A DNA stretch of 38,640 bases from a virus (Duplodnaviria; Heunggongvirae; Uroviricota; Caudoviricetes). Under the pieces are notes generated by a model that ran no database searches, was not told the DNA's origin, and saw only the letters and a list, made by a program, of their open reading frames with translations. Below are positions 9,340-31,121 of the stretch, one piece after another (within the stretch, counting starts at the first letter, position 1; each line of letters opens with the position of its first letter). The stretch lies in the IMG/VR virus record IMGVR_UViG_2724679239_000008; one strand, 5' to 3'. Made by a program: the position numbers and the translations under genes.

Positions 9340-10479
9340 TTATCCAATAATCAGGCAGCTATGCGCAGGTTTCACTGACGAAACGCCCCATGCCAGCCCA
9401 ACTTCATAACGTACCTGACGATACTGACGATACAGTGCAATCTGAAATGTAATTCCCGAGATTGGGTCCGTAACATTCATTACATCATCAGCGCTATCGC
9501 CGCCCTCCGGCATTGCCGGGGTACGGGATGCCAACAGAAATGCGTTGCGATCGAACGCCATATTTGCAGTAAATGAGCCGACAACCGTGATTGCAGTATC
9601 ATCAGCCAGATCCTGACGTAGACCTGGTGCAGCAAGGGTAATCAGATTACTGGTTGCAGCAGCCACAACATACTGATTAGGATCGCCATCGAAAGTAACA
9701 ATCTGCCCTGCCGAAATATTCCCCGAACCAGTATCAATGGAAATAAGAACATCACCTTCTTTCTTCTCACCATTCACAAGATAACCAGTTGCAGTGGCTT
9801 TTGGTACTCGTTTTACACCTGCCGAACTGTGAATACTGAATCCCTCCAGGCGCCCCAACACCCCCTCGCGCAGTAGCTGCTCAGTGCCAGATTCATTCAC
9901 TTTAAACAATACGGACTGTTTTCCGCGCAAATTAGCAATAGCGGTGGAGCCAAGTACCATCTGTAAATCGGTTGTCGGTGCCCCGTTATCCTCCAGAATC
10001 TGACGAGCCAGAGCCGCATCAGAAAGATCATCTTTAACACCAAACGGCGTTGTCCCCGCGGTCCCAACAGCACGAGAAGCACCGAAATACAGTGCGCCAA
10101 GATCAGCCTCAACCTCGTTTGCAAGTGCTCGAAAAGCTTGCTTGAACTGATCAGCCAGAATGGTGTTGTAAGTCCCGGAAGGACCAAGCGCCAGTTGTTC
10201 TTCACCATTCCATTTAACTGGCGCCATTTTAGATTTAGTAATTTTTACATCAACAGTGCCAATATTTTGATCTCCAGTATTCGGAGCTGACGGGCCCGGT
10301 ACGATATCTTCAGTTTTCGCATCAGGCGCAACTGGCGCGGTTACCGTTTGATCTTTTGCTGCAGCGTCAGCTTTTGCGTTTTTTGCTACCGCAGGAATAA
10401 AACCTACCTGCTCACGGGATACAACATCCAGGGCGGTGTAAATAGTCGGGATCAACCCGGTCAGGGTATTTCCAGCCAT
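9340..10479 (-). CDS. major capsid protein
   Basis: large ORF downstream of scaffold gene; start chosen at ATG 10479 (MAGNTLTGL...) with AAGGA upstream rather than the RBS-less track start at 10572. Confidence 0.7.
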   Translation of the reverse strand: MAGNTLTGLIPTIYTALDVVSREQVGFIPAVAKNAKADAAAKDQTVTAPVAPDAKTEDIVPGPSAPNTGDQNIGTVDVKITKSKMAPVKWNGEEQLALGPSGTYNTILADQFKQAFRALANEVEADLGALYFGASRAVGTAGTTPFGVKDDLSDAALARQILEDNGAPTTDLQMVLGSTAIANLRGKQSVLFKVNESGTEQLLREGVLGRLEGFSIHSSAGVKRVPKATATGYLVNGEKKEGDVLISIDTGSGNISAGQIVTFDGDPNQYVVAAATSNLITLAAPGLRQDLADDTAITVVGSFTANMAFDRNAFLLASRTPAMPEGGDSADDVMNVTDPISGITFQIALYRQYRQVRYEVGLAWGVSSVKPAHSCLIIG

Positions 10480-10578
10480 AATTAAATATTCCTTAAAATT
10501 TTGCGTAATTGTAAATGAATTGAGTAGTGAGCTATCCAGCCCTGACGCCAGTCCCCATCCAGGAACTGGCAAAATGTG

Positions 10579-11343
10579 TTAGTCAACGATAGTGATACCG
10601 TCTTTCAGTGCGTTTTGCTTACCTGCAACATCCAGTGCATCAAAAGCTGATCGCTTCATCGTTTTCTGACCAATATCATGCTGTGTCGGACGGGAGCCGC
10701 CACCATTGTTGCCACTGGCTTTCAGGATGTAGTCTTTCTGAGGGTAATTTTCGACGAGGAACTCCAGCGCCTCATCAAACTGCGCCAGTTCGCCTGGCTT
10801 CGTGCGGGAGTAAATTTTGTTGCCGGAAGCGTCATAAGCAACGATCTTCCCTTCTTCCACTTTGAATGACTGTCCGAAGCGGGCCTGTAATAAATCTGCC
10901 GGGATCGCAATTTTATCGGCAATATATTTTGAACCAGCAAAACTACCGCCAATCATGGAATCGTAAAGCTGCTTCTCCAGCATCTGAGAGCGTTGCTTTT
11001 CTTCGTCTAATTGCTGCTGAAAATTTTTCGTAATTTCTGCTTTAACCTGGTCAACCTGTCCCGCATCAATCAGTTTTTTCTGGTCAATTTTGGACAGCAT
11101 TTCCAGCGCCTCAATCGCCTTTTTCGGGTCATCGATGGCAGCGAACCTGGCAAGTTTTTCCTCTGCGGCCTCTTTAGCCAGACGATGATTTTTCGCCTCG
11201 CCATTAAGTTCTGTAATTTTTCTGGCTGCCAGCGGTGCATCGAAGCCGATTTCTTTACCATCATCATGCACATAAACTGGCAGACCAGCAGTGTCGATTT
11301 CTGCGTATTTTTTTCCGTTAATCTCTACTGTTTTCAGTTTCAT
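10579..11343 (-). CDS. capsid scaffolding protein
   Basis: charged, coiled-coil-rich ORF upstream of capsid gene; start at ATG 11343 (MKLKTVEINGKKY) with AGGT 6 nt upstream. Confidence 0.6.
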   Translation of the reverse strand: MKLKTVEINGKKYAEIDTAGLPVYVHDDGKEIGFDAPLAARKITELNGEAKNHRLAKEAAEEKLARFAAIDDPKKAIEALEMLSKIDQKKLIDAGQVDQVKAEITKNFQQQLDEEKQRSQMLEKQLYDSMIGGSFAGSKYIADKIAIPADLLQARFGQSFKVEEGKIVAYDASGNKIYSRTKPGELAQFDEALEFLVENYPQKDYILKASGNNGGGSRPTQHDIGQKTMKRSAFDALDVAGKQNALKDGITIVD

Positions 11344-11403
11344 ATTAATACCTGATTTAAGTCTTCCGACTGTTACACTGCTCACTATCCAGATTGCAGC
11401 AAT

Positions 11404-11427
11404 AAAAAAGGCCACCCGAAGGTAGCC
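11404..11427 (-). terminator. rho-independent terminator after head morphogenesis gene
   Basis: minus-sense GGCUACC-UUCG-GGUGGCC followed by UUUUUUAUU. Confidence 0.55.
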
Positions 11428-11447
11428 TGTTGTAATAAATAATTAAT

Positions 11448-12563
11448 TTAAATCCCGGCTTTTCTGAATGCCTGAGCATCACGCTCACGGAGTTGTCCCA
11501 GCGTCAACCATTCACCTTTATCGGTGTAAAATTCATCTGGTGACATACCTCCATCACGAATCAGTTTTGCCCGTGTTTCTCCCACTATTTGTTTTTGCCT
11601 GGCATAAGACTGGCGCAAAAACCATTCCTTGTAAGTCGTATCTCCGGCTACAACCCCATCCATACTTGCCCTCTCGGCAGGAGAAACATCCCGAACATCA
11701 ATCCCCAGTTCCTTCGCAGATTTCAGAATAAACGTTTCTGTTGAACGGCAGCAGAAATGAATTTTTCCCGGCCCCTGTAAATAAGGCACTTTGTGACCAA
11801 TAGGTTTATTATCCAGCGTATATTTGAGGCGATCCCTGATTCGACACTGTGGTGTAGTACGATTATCAAGTGTGGATAACCATTGTTTGCCCTTTATCAA
11901 ATCATTGTTTGCCATGGCGAAACTCTCACGGGCAGTAGCAGCAAGATGCCCAACCGCTGTTTTTGCAATACTGGCCGCATTAGCTCGACTCATCTGCAAT
12001 GCACCATCCTGAAACCCCTTACTGACATGCCCACGAATTTTTCTTGCGATCTGCTCATTGGTATCACCCAGCAAAAAACCCTGACGTACCGTATTTGTAA
12101 TACGCCTGAGCCGATCTGCTTCAAGGTCTGAGGCCCATTCGTTGAGTAGTCTTCCCTGAAATGGACGCGCCATTGCAGCGGCATAAAGGGTGTCAGGTGA
12201 GATACCAATCAGAGGATGAATATCCGCCACAAAATCAGGAAGCAAAGAGTCAAACAGATTTAACTGATAGCTAGCCTCATATATCGCCAGCTCGTTTAAC
12301 TCTCCTGAGAGACGAGCAAACATACTGTTAATAGCAGTGCGGTTAACTTCCCTCACACTCACCAGAAGTGATTCCAGACGCGTAACGGTGAAACTCCCCG
12401 GCCCCAAATTATCCAGAGCCACCAGCAAACGAGCTGTAAGCTCTGCGTCGCTGTCGTTCAGCGTTTTCACCATTCTGGCCGCTACACCTGTGCTATAGCG
12501 AGATATCCAGATAGCATGGGCAATCGATTCATCACGCAGCCGTTCATTCACTGTTTGCATCAT
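11448..12563 (-). CDS. head morphogenesis protein (SPP1 gp7 / Mu F-like minor head protein)
   Basis: 371-aa ORF directly downstream of portal with family-typical conserved region (TTPQCRIRD, GPGKIHFCCRS); overlaps portal by 20 nt. Confidence 0.7.
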   Translation of the reverse strand: MMQTVNERLRDESIAHAIWISRYSTGVAARMVKTLNDSDAELTARLLVALDNLGPGSFTVTRLESLLVSVREVNRTAINSMFARLSGELNELAIYEASYQLNLFDSLLPDFVADIHPLIGISPDTLYAAAMARPFQGRLLNEWASDLEADRLRRITNTVRQGFLLGDTNEQIARKIRGHVSKGFQDGALQMSRANAASIAKTAVGHLAATARESFAMANNDLIKGKQWLSTLDNRTTPQCRIRDRLKYTLDNKPIGHKVPYLQGPGKIHFCCRSTETFILKSAKELGIDVRDVSPAERASMDGVVAGDTTYKEWFLRQSYARQKQIVGETRAKLIRDGGMSPDEFYTDKGEWLTLGQLRERDAQAFRKAGI

Positions 12564-21923: not shown

Positions 21924-22210
21924 AAATAACCTTCCTTTCTCCAGATTTCTGGTGTGCGAAAAACACCTTCTGCATGCATCAGGCGCAATTCTTCTTTGGT
22001 GTAATCACTGGTTTTTACCCGCCCGTCGATTAAATCGTGGCACGAGCTACAGGCAATCGCTGCCTGCATATCATGTGGCTTTATCGCTGTTCCGCACGTT
22101 CCCGCCAGTCGGTAATGCGCCAGCACAGACGTTTCGGGATTGTGATTGCAGTAGCCAGGGATTCTGACCTGGCACATCTGGCCCCGCGCTGCTTTACGTA
22201 AACTCACCAT
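21920..22210 (-). CDS. nin-region Cys-rich protein (YbcO/DUF1364-like)
   Basis: 96-aa ORF with several Cys/His (CNHNPETSVLAHY, CSSCHDLIDG); TAATG coupling with upstream gene. Confidence 0.45.
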   Translation of the reverse strand: MVSLRKAARGQMCQVRIPGYCNHNPETSVLAHYRLAGTCGTAIKPHDMQAAIACSSCHDLIDGRVKTSDYTKEELRLMHAEGVFRTPEIWRKEGYL

Positions 22211-22809
22211 TACGCAAACTCTAGTAGCTGCGCGGCCACATTTTCGACTTCCTCCAGAGAGGAGAATTTACGGAACAGGATCCAGTTCCACAGGACGTTA
22301 AGTACAGCTTTATAAACCTGTTGAAATTCAGTTTCGTCCATATTCGCAAAAGCAATGGACTTCGCCCGACGCCCGCGGCTACCGTCTGGATAAAAATGCT
22401 CGGTGTAGAAGCCGGCCTGAATGGTCACCCACTCGCGGAAAGCGTCAAATGATTTGAGCAATGCCATATCCTGGGTTCTGCGTGTCGCAACGGTATTCAG
22501 ATATTGTTCCGCGGCATCACTCAGAGCTGGCGTATGTTCCCTGCCTACTGATTCACACAGGTAATCAACGAAGCCGAACACCATTTCTCGTTCGCGAGGT
22601 GTGATCGCCCCACCGACCGGAGTCCAGTAATCGAATCCAAGTTGCAGAAGTTTGAAAAAACGCTTGTGAAATGCATAGTTACGCACACGCTTAAAATCAG
22701 CATGTATCCACTCGCCTATTTTGATTTGATGCAGAAAATCGCAACTCTCCGGCGTCGCCGGAAGAAGTAAACCAGAAGAAGTTTGTTTGACCAGTTGTAT
22801 ATGCGCCAT
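22210..22809 (-). CDS. nin-region hypothetical protein (DUF1367-like)
   Basis: start at ATG 22809 (MAHIQLVKQ) with GGAG upstream. Confidence 0.45.
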   Translation of the reverse strand: MAHIQLVKQTSSGLLLPATPESCDFLHQIKIGEWIHADFKRVRNYAFHKRFFKLLQLGFDYWTPVGGAITPREREMVFGFVDYLCESVGREHTPALSDAAEQYLNTVATRRTQDMALLKSFDAFREWVTIQAGFYTEHFYPDGSRGRRAKSIAFANMDETEFQQVYKAVLNVLWNWILFRKFSSLEEVENVAAQLLEFA

Positions 22810-22868
22810 TGCTATCTCCAATGGCGCTGTAGGTTGCCAGTTGTTCAGGCTGGCTTACGAATTATAAC

Positions 22869-23042
22869 TCATTCCCGAACCACCTTGAAACCGAGCCTTT
22901 CCAGGTATTCAATGAACGCCTCGATAGATAAAATCACATGATCATCAGGAATTAACGTTGTGTAGATAACGTCTCCATTCTCAACGCGCACAGCATAGAG
23001 GCCATTTTCACTAAAAATTTCACGCAATTCTTCGATTTTCAT
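22869..23042 (-). CDS. small hypothetical protein (57 aa), below the ORF-track cutoff
   Basis: hand translation MKIEELREIFSENGLYAVRVENGDVIYTTLIPDDHVILSIEAFIEYLERLGFKVVRE; GGAAGGA 8 nt upstream of ATG. Confidence 0.35.
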   Translation of the reverse strand: MKIEELREIFSENGLYAVRVENGDVIYTTLIPDDHVILSIEAFIEYLERLGFKVVRE

Positions 23043-23188
23043 CTTCAGAATCCTTCCAGATAAATAGCTCTTCCCTTCTCAGGGTCCATCCCTCTTATCC
23101 CTGCGCGCTACTTAAGTGCATCGATTCTAGTCAGGCATACCCGCTTATCAACAAACGAAGGTCGGTTTAATGGAGGAGTCGGCTAAAA

Positions 23189-23214
23189 CTTGATCTGTAA
23201 AAGTAAAAAACCCG
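23189..23214 (-). terminator. rho-independent terminator downstream of hok
   Basis: minus-sense CCCGC-UUCG-GCGGG followed by UUUUUUACUUUU. Confidence 0.55.
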
Positions 23215-23294
23215 CCGAAGCGGGTTAGGTGCGGGTGCGTTGAGGATGCCTGACTCATCAGAGGTGGCGAGGGATTTCTCCCTCGCCTGGTCTC

Positions 23295-23450
23295 TTACTC
23301 CTCAGGTTCGTAAGCTGTGAAGACAGCGACCTCCGTCTGACCGGTTCGGATTCGTACCTCGCAGAGGTCTTTCCTCGTTACCAGTGCCGTAACAATGACG
23401 GTTAAACAGATGACGATCAGGGCGACTAACATCGCCTTTTGCTGCTTCAT
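23295..23450 (-). CDS. hok: Hok-family type I toxin
   Basis: MKQQKAMLVALIVICLTVIVTALVTRKDLCEVRIRTGQTEVAVFTAYEPEE matches Hok/Gef family pattern; AGGAG RBS 9 nt upstream. Confidence 0.8.
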   Translation of the reverse strand: MKQQKAMLVALIVICLTVIVTALVTRKDLCEVRIRTGQTEVAVFTAYEPEE

Positions 23451-23507
23451 AGCCTGCTTCTCCTTGCCTTTCGGCACGTAAGAGGCTAACCTACATGTGT
23501 TCAGCAT
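23295..23507 (-). CDS. mok: Mok-like in-frame N-terminally extended reading frame
   Basis: in-frame ATG 19 codons upstream (MLNTCRLASYVPKGKEKQA...), same arrangement I recall for mokC/hokC. Confidence 0.45.
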   Translation of the reverse strand: MLNTCRLASYVPKGKEKQAMKQQKAMLVALIVICLTVIVTALVTRKDLCEVRIRTGQTEVAVFTAYEPEE

Positions 23508-23575
23508 GGATTGAGCCTCAGATTAATGTTAAGCGTCCTGCAAGACGCGTAATGTTAACTGGGGCTTTTCTCTAT
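23500..23575 (+). ncRNA. sok: possible Sok-like antisense RNA (inferred, boundaries approximate)
   Basis: plus-strand TTGCCT (23464-23469), 17-nt spacer, TAACCT (23487-23492) opposite the mok start; imperfect hairpin 23529-23556; by analogy with hok/sok loci. Confidence 0.25.
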
Positions 23576-23877
23576 CTGCCTTTTGGTGTTCATGCCTGAG
23601 ACAGATAGCCTCAAGCACCCGCAGCGATTTTTACTTAACTCTTCTTTTCACGCAAACCGTTTTTATCCTCAACGTAAATTTTACCAATATCGCCTAACAC
23701 ATCTCCCCTGCCCTGACGATGCTTACCTCTTTACACAGCCCCCTATTTATGTATTATCTTTTACAAACAACCAGTTAAGAGCTATCGGTGGGTGAGTTCG
23801 CCCTGCGGTAGCTTTTCCTTTATACATTGCATCTATTTATGTTCTAGTATATTCCTATATGTTCAAAAGGACTTTTC

Positions 23878-24810
23878 ATGCACAGCGTTAATTTCTATTC
23901 ATTCCGCGTATTGACCCATAAAGGCAGTCGAGCCAGCAAAAAGCTTAATGAATTGGGTTTAAGTAATAAAAAAACGGCATATGAACTTTTTGTTGATTAT
24001 TTTACTCTATATAAAAACACCCCCATCGAGTTTGGCGTATCCAAAACTAAAATATCTCTAGAACAACACGCTAAACTTCACTTTGATAACACAAAGAAAA
24101 TTATATATGGTTATATAAAAGTTGGGAAATATGGAGAAAGTAGTGAAATAAAGGATGTAAAACTCAAAAAAATCCACTACAGGACAACTGCTTATGATGT
24201 AACACTCAAAGAACGTTATATTTTAATATACCTACCAGACACCCTTGAAGAAGGAATTATTGCATTCCATTCTTGCGATAATATTTCTGCTCGAGGTGTC
24301 CTTTCTGATTCTATCACTGAATATCTAAAAAACAAATTTCAACTCGAAGCAAGAATCAATCCATTACATCATAAGAAAATCCCTCAATATATTCTCAATT
24401 CCGAATTAAAACAAATTAAGGCTCAAGGATATAAAGCACCAAAAGACATTGCTGATTCCTTTGGTCAAAACAAAACAAACATCAAGACAGACTTAATAAT
24501 AAAAGCAAACGATGGCATGTTCGGAAGTTTCAGGGATTTAAGAAACAAGAATATAGGAAACATCATTGAGATTATTGAAGATAAATGTGATGCAATAAAA
24601 GTAAGCTTACAGCTCGGCAGTCGGACTGTCGTTTTCAATTATGATACCATACTAAAAAAAGGAATTTCCGCAGAGTTAGATGATAATGATCTAAAAATCG
24701 ACCCATTAACAGGCATACCTGATCTAACAGCACTTCATGACACGATAAAAAACCTTTCTAATGATATATTGTTAGAACTGCATAGCGGAAACAAAGGGGT
24801 GATCATATGA
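23878..24810 (+). CDS. hypothetical soluble protein, first gene of AT-rich two-gene operon (candidate sensor of a Rex-like module)
   Basis: 310-aa ORF, clearly lower GC than flanks, AAGGA RBS; ATGA overlap with downstream gene. Confidence 0.6.
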   Translation: MHSVNFYSFRVLTHKGSRASKKLNELGLSNKKTAYELFVDYFTLYKNTPIEFGVSKTKISLEQHAKLHFDNTKKIIYGYIKVGKYGESSEIKDVKLKKIHYRTTAYDVTLKERYILIYLPDTLEEGIIAFHSCDNISARGVLSDSITEYLKNKFQLEARINPLHHKKIPQYILNSELKQIKAQGYKAPKDIADSFGQNKTNIKTDLIIKANDGMFGSFRDLRNKNIGNIIEIIEDKCDAIKVSLQLGSRTVVFNYDTILKKGISAELDDNDLKIDPLTGIPDLTALHDTIKNLSNDILLELHSGNKGVII

Positions 24811-25361
24811 ATAAAATAAATGTGCTGGGTGTAATAATAAAACACTACAAAACAATGTCAGATCAGCGTGGAACAATGTTGATGAGCGACATTATCGTAC
24901 ATTTTATTGTTCCGCTATCTCTTTCTTTCGTTCTGTGCTGGACATACGGAATAATGAAACCGGCAATTGCTTCCGTCTTCGTTAACTTCGGGGCTATTAC
25001 AACAGCACTATTAATGAGTGCAGTAATAATGATTTATGAACAAAAACAAAAAACCATTACTAAGATATCAGACATAATTGAAGGACACAAATCCCGAGAC
25101 AAATTGATATCATTAAACACTAACAAAACCATATATGAGCAGTTATGCCACAACGTCGCTTATGCAATATTAACTTCAATAGTATTGGTTATATTTTCAG
25201 TGATAATATATTTCCTGCCTGACAATGCAGTGGATTTAATGAAATGGTATTTTCGCGCACCTGCATATATTGTTAGCTTTTTAGCCTATACATCCTTTTT
25301 TATCACTGTTATAACGTTCTTAATGGTAATCAAAAGGTTTAGCACAATTTTAGATAATTGA
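24807..25361 (+). CDS. hypothetical membrane protein with four predicted TM helices (candidate effector)
   Basis: 184-aa ORF, four hydrophobic segments of about 20 aa each, translationally coupled to upstream gene. Confidence 0.6.
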   Translation: MNKINVLGVIIKHYKTMSDQRGTMLMSDIIVHFIVPLSLSFVLCWTYGIMKPAIASVFVNFGAITTALLMSAVIMIYEQKQKTITKISDIIEGHKSRDKLISLNTNKTIYEQLCHNVAYAILTSIVLVIFSVIIYFLPDNAVDLMKWYFRAPAYIVSFLAYTSFFITVITFLMVIKRFSTILDN

Positions 25362-29657: not shown

Positions 29658-30119
29658 ATGAAAAAAACACGCGAAGTGATTGCAACTCCAGAAGCGAGCA
29701 AGAATTTAAAAGCCGCATGGAATGCAAGAAAAAAAGAGCTGAAGCTGACTCAAGAGCTGGCGGCTGAGTTGTTGGGATTCGAATCTCAAGGCACCGTTAG
29801 CCAGTATCTGAACGGCAAGATACCGGTAAATACCGACGCTGCGCTAAAATTTGCGGCTCTGTTAAAGGTAAAACCAGAGGACATTCGAGAAGACCTTAAA
29901 GACTTAATGAATTATGTAAGATCATCAGATACTTATGATGATAGTTTTTCAGGCAAAGGATGGAGACTGGTCAATGAAGAACAGGCAGAGTTACTTAACC
30001 TCTTCGAGATTCTACCTGCGTCAGAAAAAGCCAAACTCCTTAACCAGCTACGTGGACTAAACAAGCTCTACGAGGAAGCCTTCGAGAACATGCTGGCACT
30101 AAAGAAACGTAACCAGTAG
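29658..30119 (+). CDS. racR: prophage repressor, RacR-like (HTH XRE family)
   Basis: 153-aa ORF with HTH LTQELAAELLGFESQGTVSQYLNGK; divergent from cro-like gene. Confidence 0.65.
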   Translation: MKKTREVIATPEASKNLKAAWNARKKELKLTQELAAELLGFESQGTVSQYLNGKIPVNTDAALKFAALLKVKPEDIREDLKDLMNYVRSSDTYDDSFSGKGWRLVNEEQAELLNLFEILPASEKAKLLNQLRGLNKLYEEAFENMLALKKRNQ

Positions 30120-30513: not shown

Positions 30514-30669
30514 ATGCAAAAAATCGACCTCGGCAACAACGAATCCCTGGTGTGCGGCATGTTACCCAACCAGGACGGTACGTTCACCGCGATGACGTAT
30601 ACCAAAAGCAAAACATTTAAAACCGAAACTGGTGCGCGCCGATGGTTGGAGAAGCACACAGTAAGCTAA
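30514..30669 (+). CDS. small protein (51 aa), YdaF-like by size and position
   Basis: hand translation MQKIDLGNNESLVCGMLPNQDGTFTAMTYTKSKTFKTETGARRWLEKHTVS. Confidence 0.45.
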   Translation: MQKIDLGNNESLVCGMLPNQDGTFTAMTYTKSKTFKTETGARRWLEKHTVS

Positions 30670-31121
30670 CGATTAAAACGTCTACTCCTGCTGTTCCAGA
30701 ATAACTTCATAAAATGGGAGTATTTTTCGGTGACGAGATAATAAGAACAGTTTGCGCTATCACTCTGATGTTGAATGATGCCCTTCCGTTCTAATTTTTT
30801 CATAACCGGGTTACGGCAAGGAGAAGTGATAATAAGATTTCCTGTTTTAAGGAAATCTTTAAATACAGCGATTTCTTTCTCAGATAAACGAAGCAATACT
30901 CGTTGCTCTGGTAGTAATGAATAATGCTTTTGAATATGTGCTCGCAATCTTGAGAAGGAAATGGCGACCACAAAAGAAAAGGCAAAAACGATAATCTGAA
31001 ACAGCCAGGGTATTTCAGTATAAGTATTGAATGCGACAACAAACTCTTTCGGCATCAACCAGAGAGTGAGGCCAAAAATAATAATCGTGTACATAAGTCT
31101 TTCGATGTGGCTCATTAGCAA
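30666..31121 (-). CDS. sieB: superinfection exclusion protein B-like membrane protein
   Basis: 151-aa ORF with two N-terminal TM segments; position matches sieB in Rac-like early regions. Confidence 0.5.
   Translation of the reverse strand: MLMSHIERLMYTIIIFGLTLWLMPKEFVVAFNTYTEIPWLFQIIVFAFSFVVAISFSRLRAHIQKHYSLLPEQRVLLRLSEKEIAVFKDFLKTGNLIITSPCRNPVMKKLERKGIIQHQSDSANCSYYLVTEKYSHFMKLFWNSRSRRFNR

Follow-up and report, generated by a model that had tools for sequence, protein, structure and literature searches.

What is the small open reading frame (ORF) that lies between the toxin gene hok and a gene for a DUF1367 protein in the viral DNA of the IMG/VR record IMGVR_UViG_2724679239_000008 (Caudoviricetes), and what could its product do? 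The whole stretch, 38,640 nucleotides in length, is referred to here as the window. The ORF comprises 57 codons and almost certainly encodes a genuine protein, a member of the Rem family. The find is an ordinary one: the ORF represents a short, conserved allele of rem, a known prophage gene whose long form, of 83 amino acids, is found in Escherichia coli K-12 (b1561, in the Qin cryptic prophage). With a probability of roughly 0.55, the short allele of Rem acts as an antirepressor on the resident repressor of the prophage, being expressed from a promoter of its own that has no LexA box.

The ORF lies on the same strand as its two neighbours and fills the space from the hok terminator to the DUF1367 gene (ATG at 22809). 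An earlier note on this DNA, made from the sequence alone, had described a minus-strand frame of 57 codons, and the ORF list contains it exactly there: the coding sequence, including the stop codon, runs from an ATG over 22869..23042 of the minus strand and specifies the protein MKIEELREIFSENGLYAVRVENGDVIYTTLIPDDHVILSIEAFIEYLERLGFKVVRE. The GGAAGGA that had been proposed as the ribosome-binding site is likewise in place, i.e., a Shine–Dalgarno-like element at 23051..23057 on the minus strand (read from 23057 to 23051), 8 nucleotides ahead of the ATG. It differs by at most one base in all relatives from E. coli, E. albertii and the Salmonella locus L006, as well as in K-12 rem. Another ATG, at 23089, is situated 47 nucleotides 5′ of the real start and is out of frame in the window; because insertions and deletions in the relatives put this ATG sometimes in frame and sometimes out of it, the true start is at 23042.

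That the frame is a genuine small-protein gene, as the earlier note proposed, is upheld by its conservation, by its pattern of substitutions and by its occurrence in the databases. The identical protein is present in at least 1000 contigs in public databases, under the names “hypothetical protein” or “Phage protein” in GenBank and UniRef, and at least 80% of the ORF is held by 292 of 5426 complete E. coli genomes. Full-length versions of 54–58 amino acids, with the frame open, occur in E. albertii and Salmonella. Interruption of the frame in close relatives had been named as the finding that would speak against a gene; none of the relatives examined, among them the eight diverged alleles that were compared, shows such an interruption. 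Over the whole ORF in these eight alleles, the ratio of nonsynonymous to synonymous substitution rates (dN/dS) is 0.1–0.3 in most well-diverged pairs, and the variable columns at codon positions 1, 2 and 3 number 30, 16 and 47, respectively. The ORF is under purifying selection. A profile search of 1.84 billion representative sequences found 40 relatives at E ≤ 0.001, and the distant homologues (57–73 amino acids, 37–42% identity) are of similar length and have kept the PDDH and ERxG motifs. Searches of NCBIfam and PADLOC with the protein gave no matches, nor did a literature search for the peptide sequence. The family of Rem-type proteins is restricted to Escherichia, Shigella and Salmonella, since a scan at one genome per species gave four loci only.

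The conservation data contradict the way in which RefSeq presents this locus. The Prokaryotic Genome Annotation Pipeline (PGAP) has annotated the first 25–26 codons (75–78 nucleotides) as a pseudogene, a “hypothetical protein, missing C-terminus”, in each of the seven genomes that were inspected (e.g. in loci L001, 3147..3224; L002, 2147..2224; L026, 11089..11166; L027, 11147..11224; L030, 12001..12075; and L031, 12001..12078). Taken literally, this would make the ORF a decaying remnant of a longer rem, in which the 26 N-terminal codons are followed by unrelated sequence, and the similarity that BLASTP detects to K-12 Rem does indeed end at residue 26 (69% identity over residues 1–26, E 9e-12). 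However, it is the part of the protein after residue 26 that is best conserved, with D34, H35 and S39 invariant and P32, F43, E45, Y46, R49 and G51 nearly so; the low dN/dS extends over the entire ORF; the length stays at 57–58 amino acids in E. coli, E. albertii and Salmonella; the homologues at 37–42% identity share this length and the motifs; and the AlphaFold2 model is one compact domain, with a predicted local distance difference test (pLDDT) score of 82. Decay of a longer gene is therefore very improbable. The pseudogene call is wrong and apparently stems from comparison with the long form, and probably about 5% of complete E. coli genomes carry the miscall.

The homology check suggested in the earlier note, when run, placed the protein in the Rem family. 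The Pfam family PF27490 (“Rem”) is found on 69 of 69 homologues, including P0001 at 98% identity, these being precomputed hits on the homologues and not on the window protein itself; homologues of the short length (P0031, P0013 and P0040, of 57–58 amino acids) match it at E 1e-5 or better. A Pfam scan of the window protein with a set of models that did not include PF27490 gave noise matches only. The profile phrog_340 matches the window protein at 1.2e-17 over amino acids 1–56 and an 86-amino-acid long form at 2.2e-21, and tblastn against phage records found genes annotated rem. A close parallel among described prophages is the Rem of Rac-SA53 (KU052037.1, ALP46928.1), a short-form homologue of 58 amino acids that is 72% identical to the window protein over amino acids 4–57. 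The gene order there is like that of the window (mok/hok, rem, irsA, ybcO, Q) and the repressor, labelled “dicA”, also has 153 amino acids, whereas the two rem genes are different alleles; the label in that record, “Rem, similar to Rem of Qin prophage”, was given by similarity only. Thus, the exact protein, the Pfam family and a GenBank annotation as rem all exist already. The description of the ORF as unannotated holds in so far as RefSeq offers only the pseudogene, but fails for GenBank and UniRef, which contain the identical protein, and for the Rac-SA53 homologue, which bears the name Rem.

The K-12 gene and the window ORF occupy the same slot, i.e., behind a hok terminator and ahead of a ydfU/irsA-type gene and Q (in K-12, the order is hokD, rem, ydfU, ydfT). 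From the −10 element to approximately codon 25, leader included, the DNA of short and long loci is near-identical; beyond that it is unrelated until the next gene. The 83-amino-acid K-12 Rem and the 57-amino-acid short form differ in length and, after residue ~26, in sequence. Profile alignment with hhalign joins the short form to the N-terminus of K-12 Rem over 32 columns with 99% probability. Because phrog_340 aligns residues 31–85 of the long form with residues 1–56 of the short form at the same profile positions, the short form is a complete domain and not a truncation; judged from these alignments, the long form resembles the short domain with an extra helix-hairpin added in front. One phage record calls the long form “Antitoxin Rem”.

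The AlphaFold2 model, calculated with a broader alignment, consists of a helix (residues 3–9), a hairpin (15–21, 24–31) and a second helix (40–49). This topology is loosely similar to that of HicA, an RNA-binding toxin, and there are two further hints in that direction: the Joint Genome Institute (JGI) name for the homologue P0031 is “predicted RNA binding protein YcfA (HicA-like)”, and Pfam HicA_toxin gives a weak match at amino acids 43–56. The idea that the 57-amino-acid protein is a HicA-like toxin was rejected on the score for PF07927 (below threshold), on the absence of a gene for a HicB partner and on the fold, and its probability is close to nil.

How is the gene expressed? Upstream, the rem unit is bounded by the intrinsic terminator of hok (23199..23226, minus strand, from a terminator scan), in which the stem-loop AACCCGCTTCGGCGGGTT (23226..23209) is followed by the T run TTTTACTTTT; K-12 and other loci have the same hairpin ahead of rem. 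On the 3′ side of this terminator there is a candidate promoter of the sigma-70 type, TTGATA-16 nucleotides-TAGAAT (23124..23151, minus strand), which agrees with the consensus at 10 of 12 positions. The scan yielded one match where 1.2 were expected, which is not above chance when taken alone. However, the −10 element (TAGAAT or TAAAAT) has been kept in all relatives except the most divergent (L009) and a TTGNNN −35 element has been kept in most, while the DNA further upstream is unrelated, the neighbours there being hok, Fic, HsdR or ORC-like genes. Conservation of the −10 element next to differing upstream neighbours thus supports the candidate, and the best reading of the sequence is that rem probably has its own promoter here.

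Between this promoter and the start codon is a conserved 5′ untranslated leader (23043..23117, minus strand), which is near-identical in short-form and long-form loci, including K-12. Alignment of the leaders revealed an invariant element, GTAGCGCGCAGGGA (23111..23098), and a small hairpin, CCCT-GAGA-AGGG (23084..23073), of the general form CCCY-loop-RGGG. The closing pair of the hairpin varies among T-A, C-G and T-G, and only one pair co-varies. Some of the loops (GAACA, GAAAA, GAGAA) resemble boxB or GNRA-type pentaloops; a reading of the hairpin as boxB in a nut site was abandoned, since the loop in K-12 differs and there is no boxA.

The suggestion in the earlier note that a small protein at this position might be a regulator or antitoxin-like leads to the neighbouring toxin gene. 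Hok (Pfam HOK_GEF, 1.8e-23) is encoded about 250 nucleotides upstream of the ORF on the same strand, and this proximity, together with the “Antitoxin Rem” label mentioned above, could be taken to mean that the 57-amino-acid protein is an antitoxin or modulator of Hok. Yet the RNA antitoxin of hok, Sok, is already in place (Rfam RF01794, 118.9 bits, 23445..23620); the terminator and the separate promoter candidate stand between the two genes; other cargo, namely a doc/Fic pair or two other genes, can be inserted between them; and the ORF, the linkage of which is with the late-control genes downstream rather than with hok, is found without hok in loci L016–L018. A partnership with Hok is hence highly improbable. 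Of the two halves of the earlier suggestion, it is the regulator that is probable, given the Rem family and the antirepressor activity of K-12 Rem (PMC10448788); the antitoxin is not sustained, given Sok and the loci without hok.

Which regulator the protein might be is indicated by two described systems. In the first, ectopic expression of K-12 Rem raised dicBp-lacZ 165-fold and caused filamentation that depended on DicB and DicF, from which it was concluded that Rem is an antirepressor of DicA, a 135-amino-acid repressor without a RecA cleavage site (Ragunathan et al. 2023, PMC10448788). In the second, the Gifsy prophages of Salmonella owe their induction to small antirepressors; these bind to short repressors that are not cleaved, in some cases non-cognate ones, and DicA and RacR have been listed in the same class of repressors (Lemire et al. 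2011, PMC3121763). The same study places gftA, the antirepressor gene of Gifsy-2, between dinI and the irsA homologue (PMC3121763). In Gifsy-2 the small GTG-initiated ORF STM1020.1n is directly ahead of STM1020, the product of which is 54% identical to the DUF1367 protein of the window (E 3e-75); because the window ORF and gftA both directly precede irsA/DUF1367 homologues, they occupy the same position. The likeness extends further: GftA, GfoA and GfhA have about 70 amino acids, and their genes, like the window ORF, directly precede irsA, follow the replication genes and have a terminator-like hairpin ahead of them. There is also a difference, in that the Gifsy antirepressor genes belong to a LexA-controlled operon headed by a dinI homologue, whereas in the window there is neither dinI nor a LexA box, and hok precedes.

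The resident repressor of the window fits the same scheme. It is a protein of 153 amino acids encoded at 29658..30119 on the plus strand (Pfam HTH_3, 1.1e-09, as its only domain), divergent from YdaS-like and YdaT-like genes, and a Pfam scan found no Peptidase_S24 domain in it. It has the C-terminal motif LLxLFxxLPxSEK in common with DicA and with GtgR of Gifsy-2, and the cognate repressors of the Gifsy prophages, of about 140–150 amino acids and uncleaved, share this motif too. The window repressor falls into the same short, non-cleavable class as GfoR, GtgR and DicA, i.e., the kind that is controlled by antirepressors, and K-12 Rem and the window ORF are alike in having such a repressor resident in their prophage. 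As a separate observation, the pattern L-x-x-x-x-x-LL-x-LF-x-x-LP-x-SE-K/Q is shared by repressors whose helix-turn-helix (HTH) domains are unrelated or weakly related (in addition to the window repressor, those at L004 12560..12979, L003 7935..8342 and L021 6864..7280), and K-12 RacR is without it.

From membership of the Rem family, from the slot shared with gftA and K-12 rem and from the short non-cleavable repressor, we infer the antirepressor activity and its target; the role suggested below for the C-terminal half of the protein is inferred as well. Transcription of rem would start at the gene's own promoter, a short distance past the hok terminator. The 57-amino-acid protein would bind the 153-amino-acid HTH repressor and remove it from its operators, and removal of the repressor would switch on the early operons, as K-12 Rem does with DicA and GftA and GfoA do with GtgR and GfoR. 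Which repressor is recognized may depend on the C-terminal half, in which the two forms of Rem differ. Considered by itself, the antirepressor function of the 57-amino-acid protein has about an even chance of being correct.

Several points weigh against such a function. Homology to the proven antirepressors is carried by the N-terminal third of the protein, by PF27490 and phrog_340 and by gene position; the C-terminal half, which is more than half of the short protein, resembles its counterpart in K-12 Rem only marginally, and with this counterpart it forms a collinear, gap-free hhalign alignment (E 0.03). Similarity to GftA is not significant, either by BLASTP (E 0.047 against three subject sequences) or by profile–profile comparison with hhalign (E 0.12 local, 0.055 global), and PF27490 is absent from the GftA homologues; a direct sequence link to GftA was rejected, as the scores are at noise level. 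Structure prediction, which the earlier note had proposed as a check, produced the compact domain described above but no relative for it, comparison with solved structures and with predicted viral structures having given no significant match. The relation between the form of rem and the type of repressor, which itself counts in favour of the function, was drawn from 11 prophages, uncorrected for shared ancestry: all eight short-form prophages inspected have immunity of the Rac type, with a short HTH repressor of 139–158 amino acids (153/154, 139 or 158) adjoining a ydaT-family gene and, in most of them, a YdaS-like regulator between the two, whereas all three long-form prophages have the 135-amino-acid DicA with DicC. 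Near-identical short alleles also occur with very different repressors, one of which, of 139 amino acids, is 26% identical to that of the window, and a class of alleles at 90% identity occurs with a RacR of the K-12 type, which lacks the shared C-terminal motif.

The signal for induction is a further point on this side. No LexA box (CTGT-N8-ACAG, with at most one mismatch) is present near 23043..23230, and control by LexA as in Gifsy was rejected on this ground. The immunity intergenic region and the rem promoter and leader have no 8-mer in common, and the idea that the prophage repressor itself controls rem was likewise dropped. Neither a LexA box nor the immunity operators, then, point to an inducing signal, and none is known for K-12 Rem (PMC10448788).

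If the 57-amino-acid protein is real but not an antirepressor, it might act with or on the genes that always follow it, e.g. in late-gene control or DNA processing, or on a target in the host. The tightest linkage of the ORF is with its downstream side: whatever lies upstream, the ORF is always directly upstream of a late-control block, either DUF1367/irsA-YbcO-Q or DUF968-RusA-Q. In the window, the next gene is the DUF1367 gene, an irsA homologue (22210..22809, minus strand; Pfam PF07105, 5.6e-97), followed by YbcO/DUF1364 and then a DUF1133/Q-like gene. A conserved spacer (22836..22866, minus strand, identified by alignment) follows the rem stop codon ahead of DUF1367 and contains a TATAAT (22866..22861) and a hairpin, GCCAG-N9-CTGGC (22854..22836), which the Salmonella locus L009 has kept through changes on both sides (GTTGG...CCGAC); the spacer may serve the gene that follows, either as a promoter or as an RNA element. 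The unlike C-terminal half of K-12 Rem, the only Rem tested, and the occurrence of the same allele with unrelated repressors argue in this direction as well, as does the deletion of K-12 rem, which was without phenotype with respect to DicF accumulation and to induction, whether spontaneous or by urea or heat (PMC10448788). On the other hand, the downstream block switches type, from DUF1367 to DUF968, while rem stays; K-12 Rem and GftA, in the same slot, are antirepressors; and non-polar deletions of irsA had no significant effect on the induction of reporter fusions in Gifsy (PMC3121763). A role for the protein outside repressor control is thus unlikely on present evidence, although it is the alternative to be taken most seriously.

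A bolder form of the antirepressor reading can be proposed, if tentatively and with more doubt than confidence. Rem would be a two-part antirepressor, in which a constant part (promoter, leader and N-terminal helix-hairpin) is combined with an exchangeable C-terminal half that specifies the repressor. The short form would then be the antirepressor of Rac-type immunity, i.e., of the 139–158-amino-acid repressors found next to YdaS and YdaT, possibly including RacR, and the inducing signal would act at the invariant leader with its small hairpin. To our knowledge, RacR has no known inducer. An antirepressor function of the short allele would explain the induction of prophages with Rac-type non-cleavable repressors. 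Such prophages are frequent in pathogenic E. coli, O157 and enterotoxigenic E. coli (ETEC) among them, and toxin genes are often part of their cargo. The same function would make the short and long forms, with their shared promoter, leader and N-terminus, a pair of natural specificity variants with which repressor recognition could be mapped. Biologically, the short allele is a variation to be expected within a system already described.

Some smaller observations concern the surroundings of the gene. The upstream neighbours of rem vary (hok, a doc/Fic pair, HsdR-like, ORC/CDC6-like and a LysR gene), and the interval between hok and rem is a hot spot for insertions. Several prophages have a 59-amino-acid gene plus a toxin of the doc/Fic family there (L002, 1263..1946; L013, 2088..2771; L031, 11089..11772), L030 has two other genes (10109..11843), and in some prophages HsdR-like or ORC/CDC6-like genes stand in place of hok. 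The 3′ end of the hok mRNA (23205..23286, minus strand), which includes two hairpins, one of them the terminator, gives a match to the Rfam family isrK that scores 31.2 bits and so stays below the gathering score of 50 (E 2e-5 for the short stretch); the matching region has no overlap with the ORF. In Gifsy-1, read-through of IsrK controls the translation of an antirepressor-like gene, and the locus is downstream of Q (PMC4825925). Equivalence with isrK was dropped because of the different place of IsrK in the Gifsy-1 prophage.

Further along the window, two overlapping ORFs on the plus strand (23878..25361) encode proteins of 310 and 184 amino acids, the latter rich in hydrophobic stretches; neither gave a Pfam or PADLOC match. 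This island has a G+C content of 0.32–0.35, compared with about 0.5 around it, and is absent from a similar prophage in strain 2013C-3342. It has the appearance of inserted cargo, perhaps a pair of genes for defence or exclusion. Finally, a gene for the superinfection-exclusion protein SieB (30666..31121, minus strand; Pfam 1.8e-31) adjoins the immunity region, as it does in Rac.
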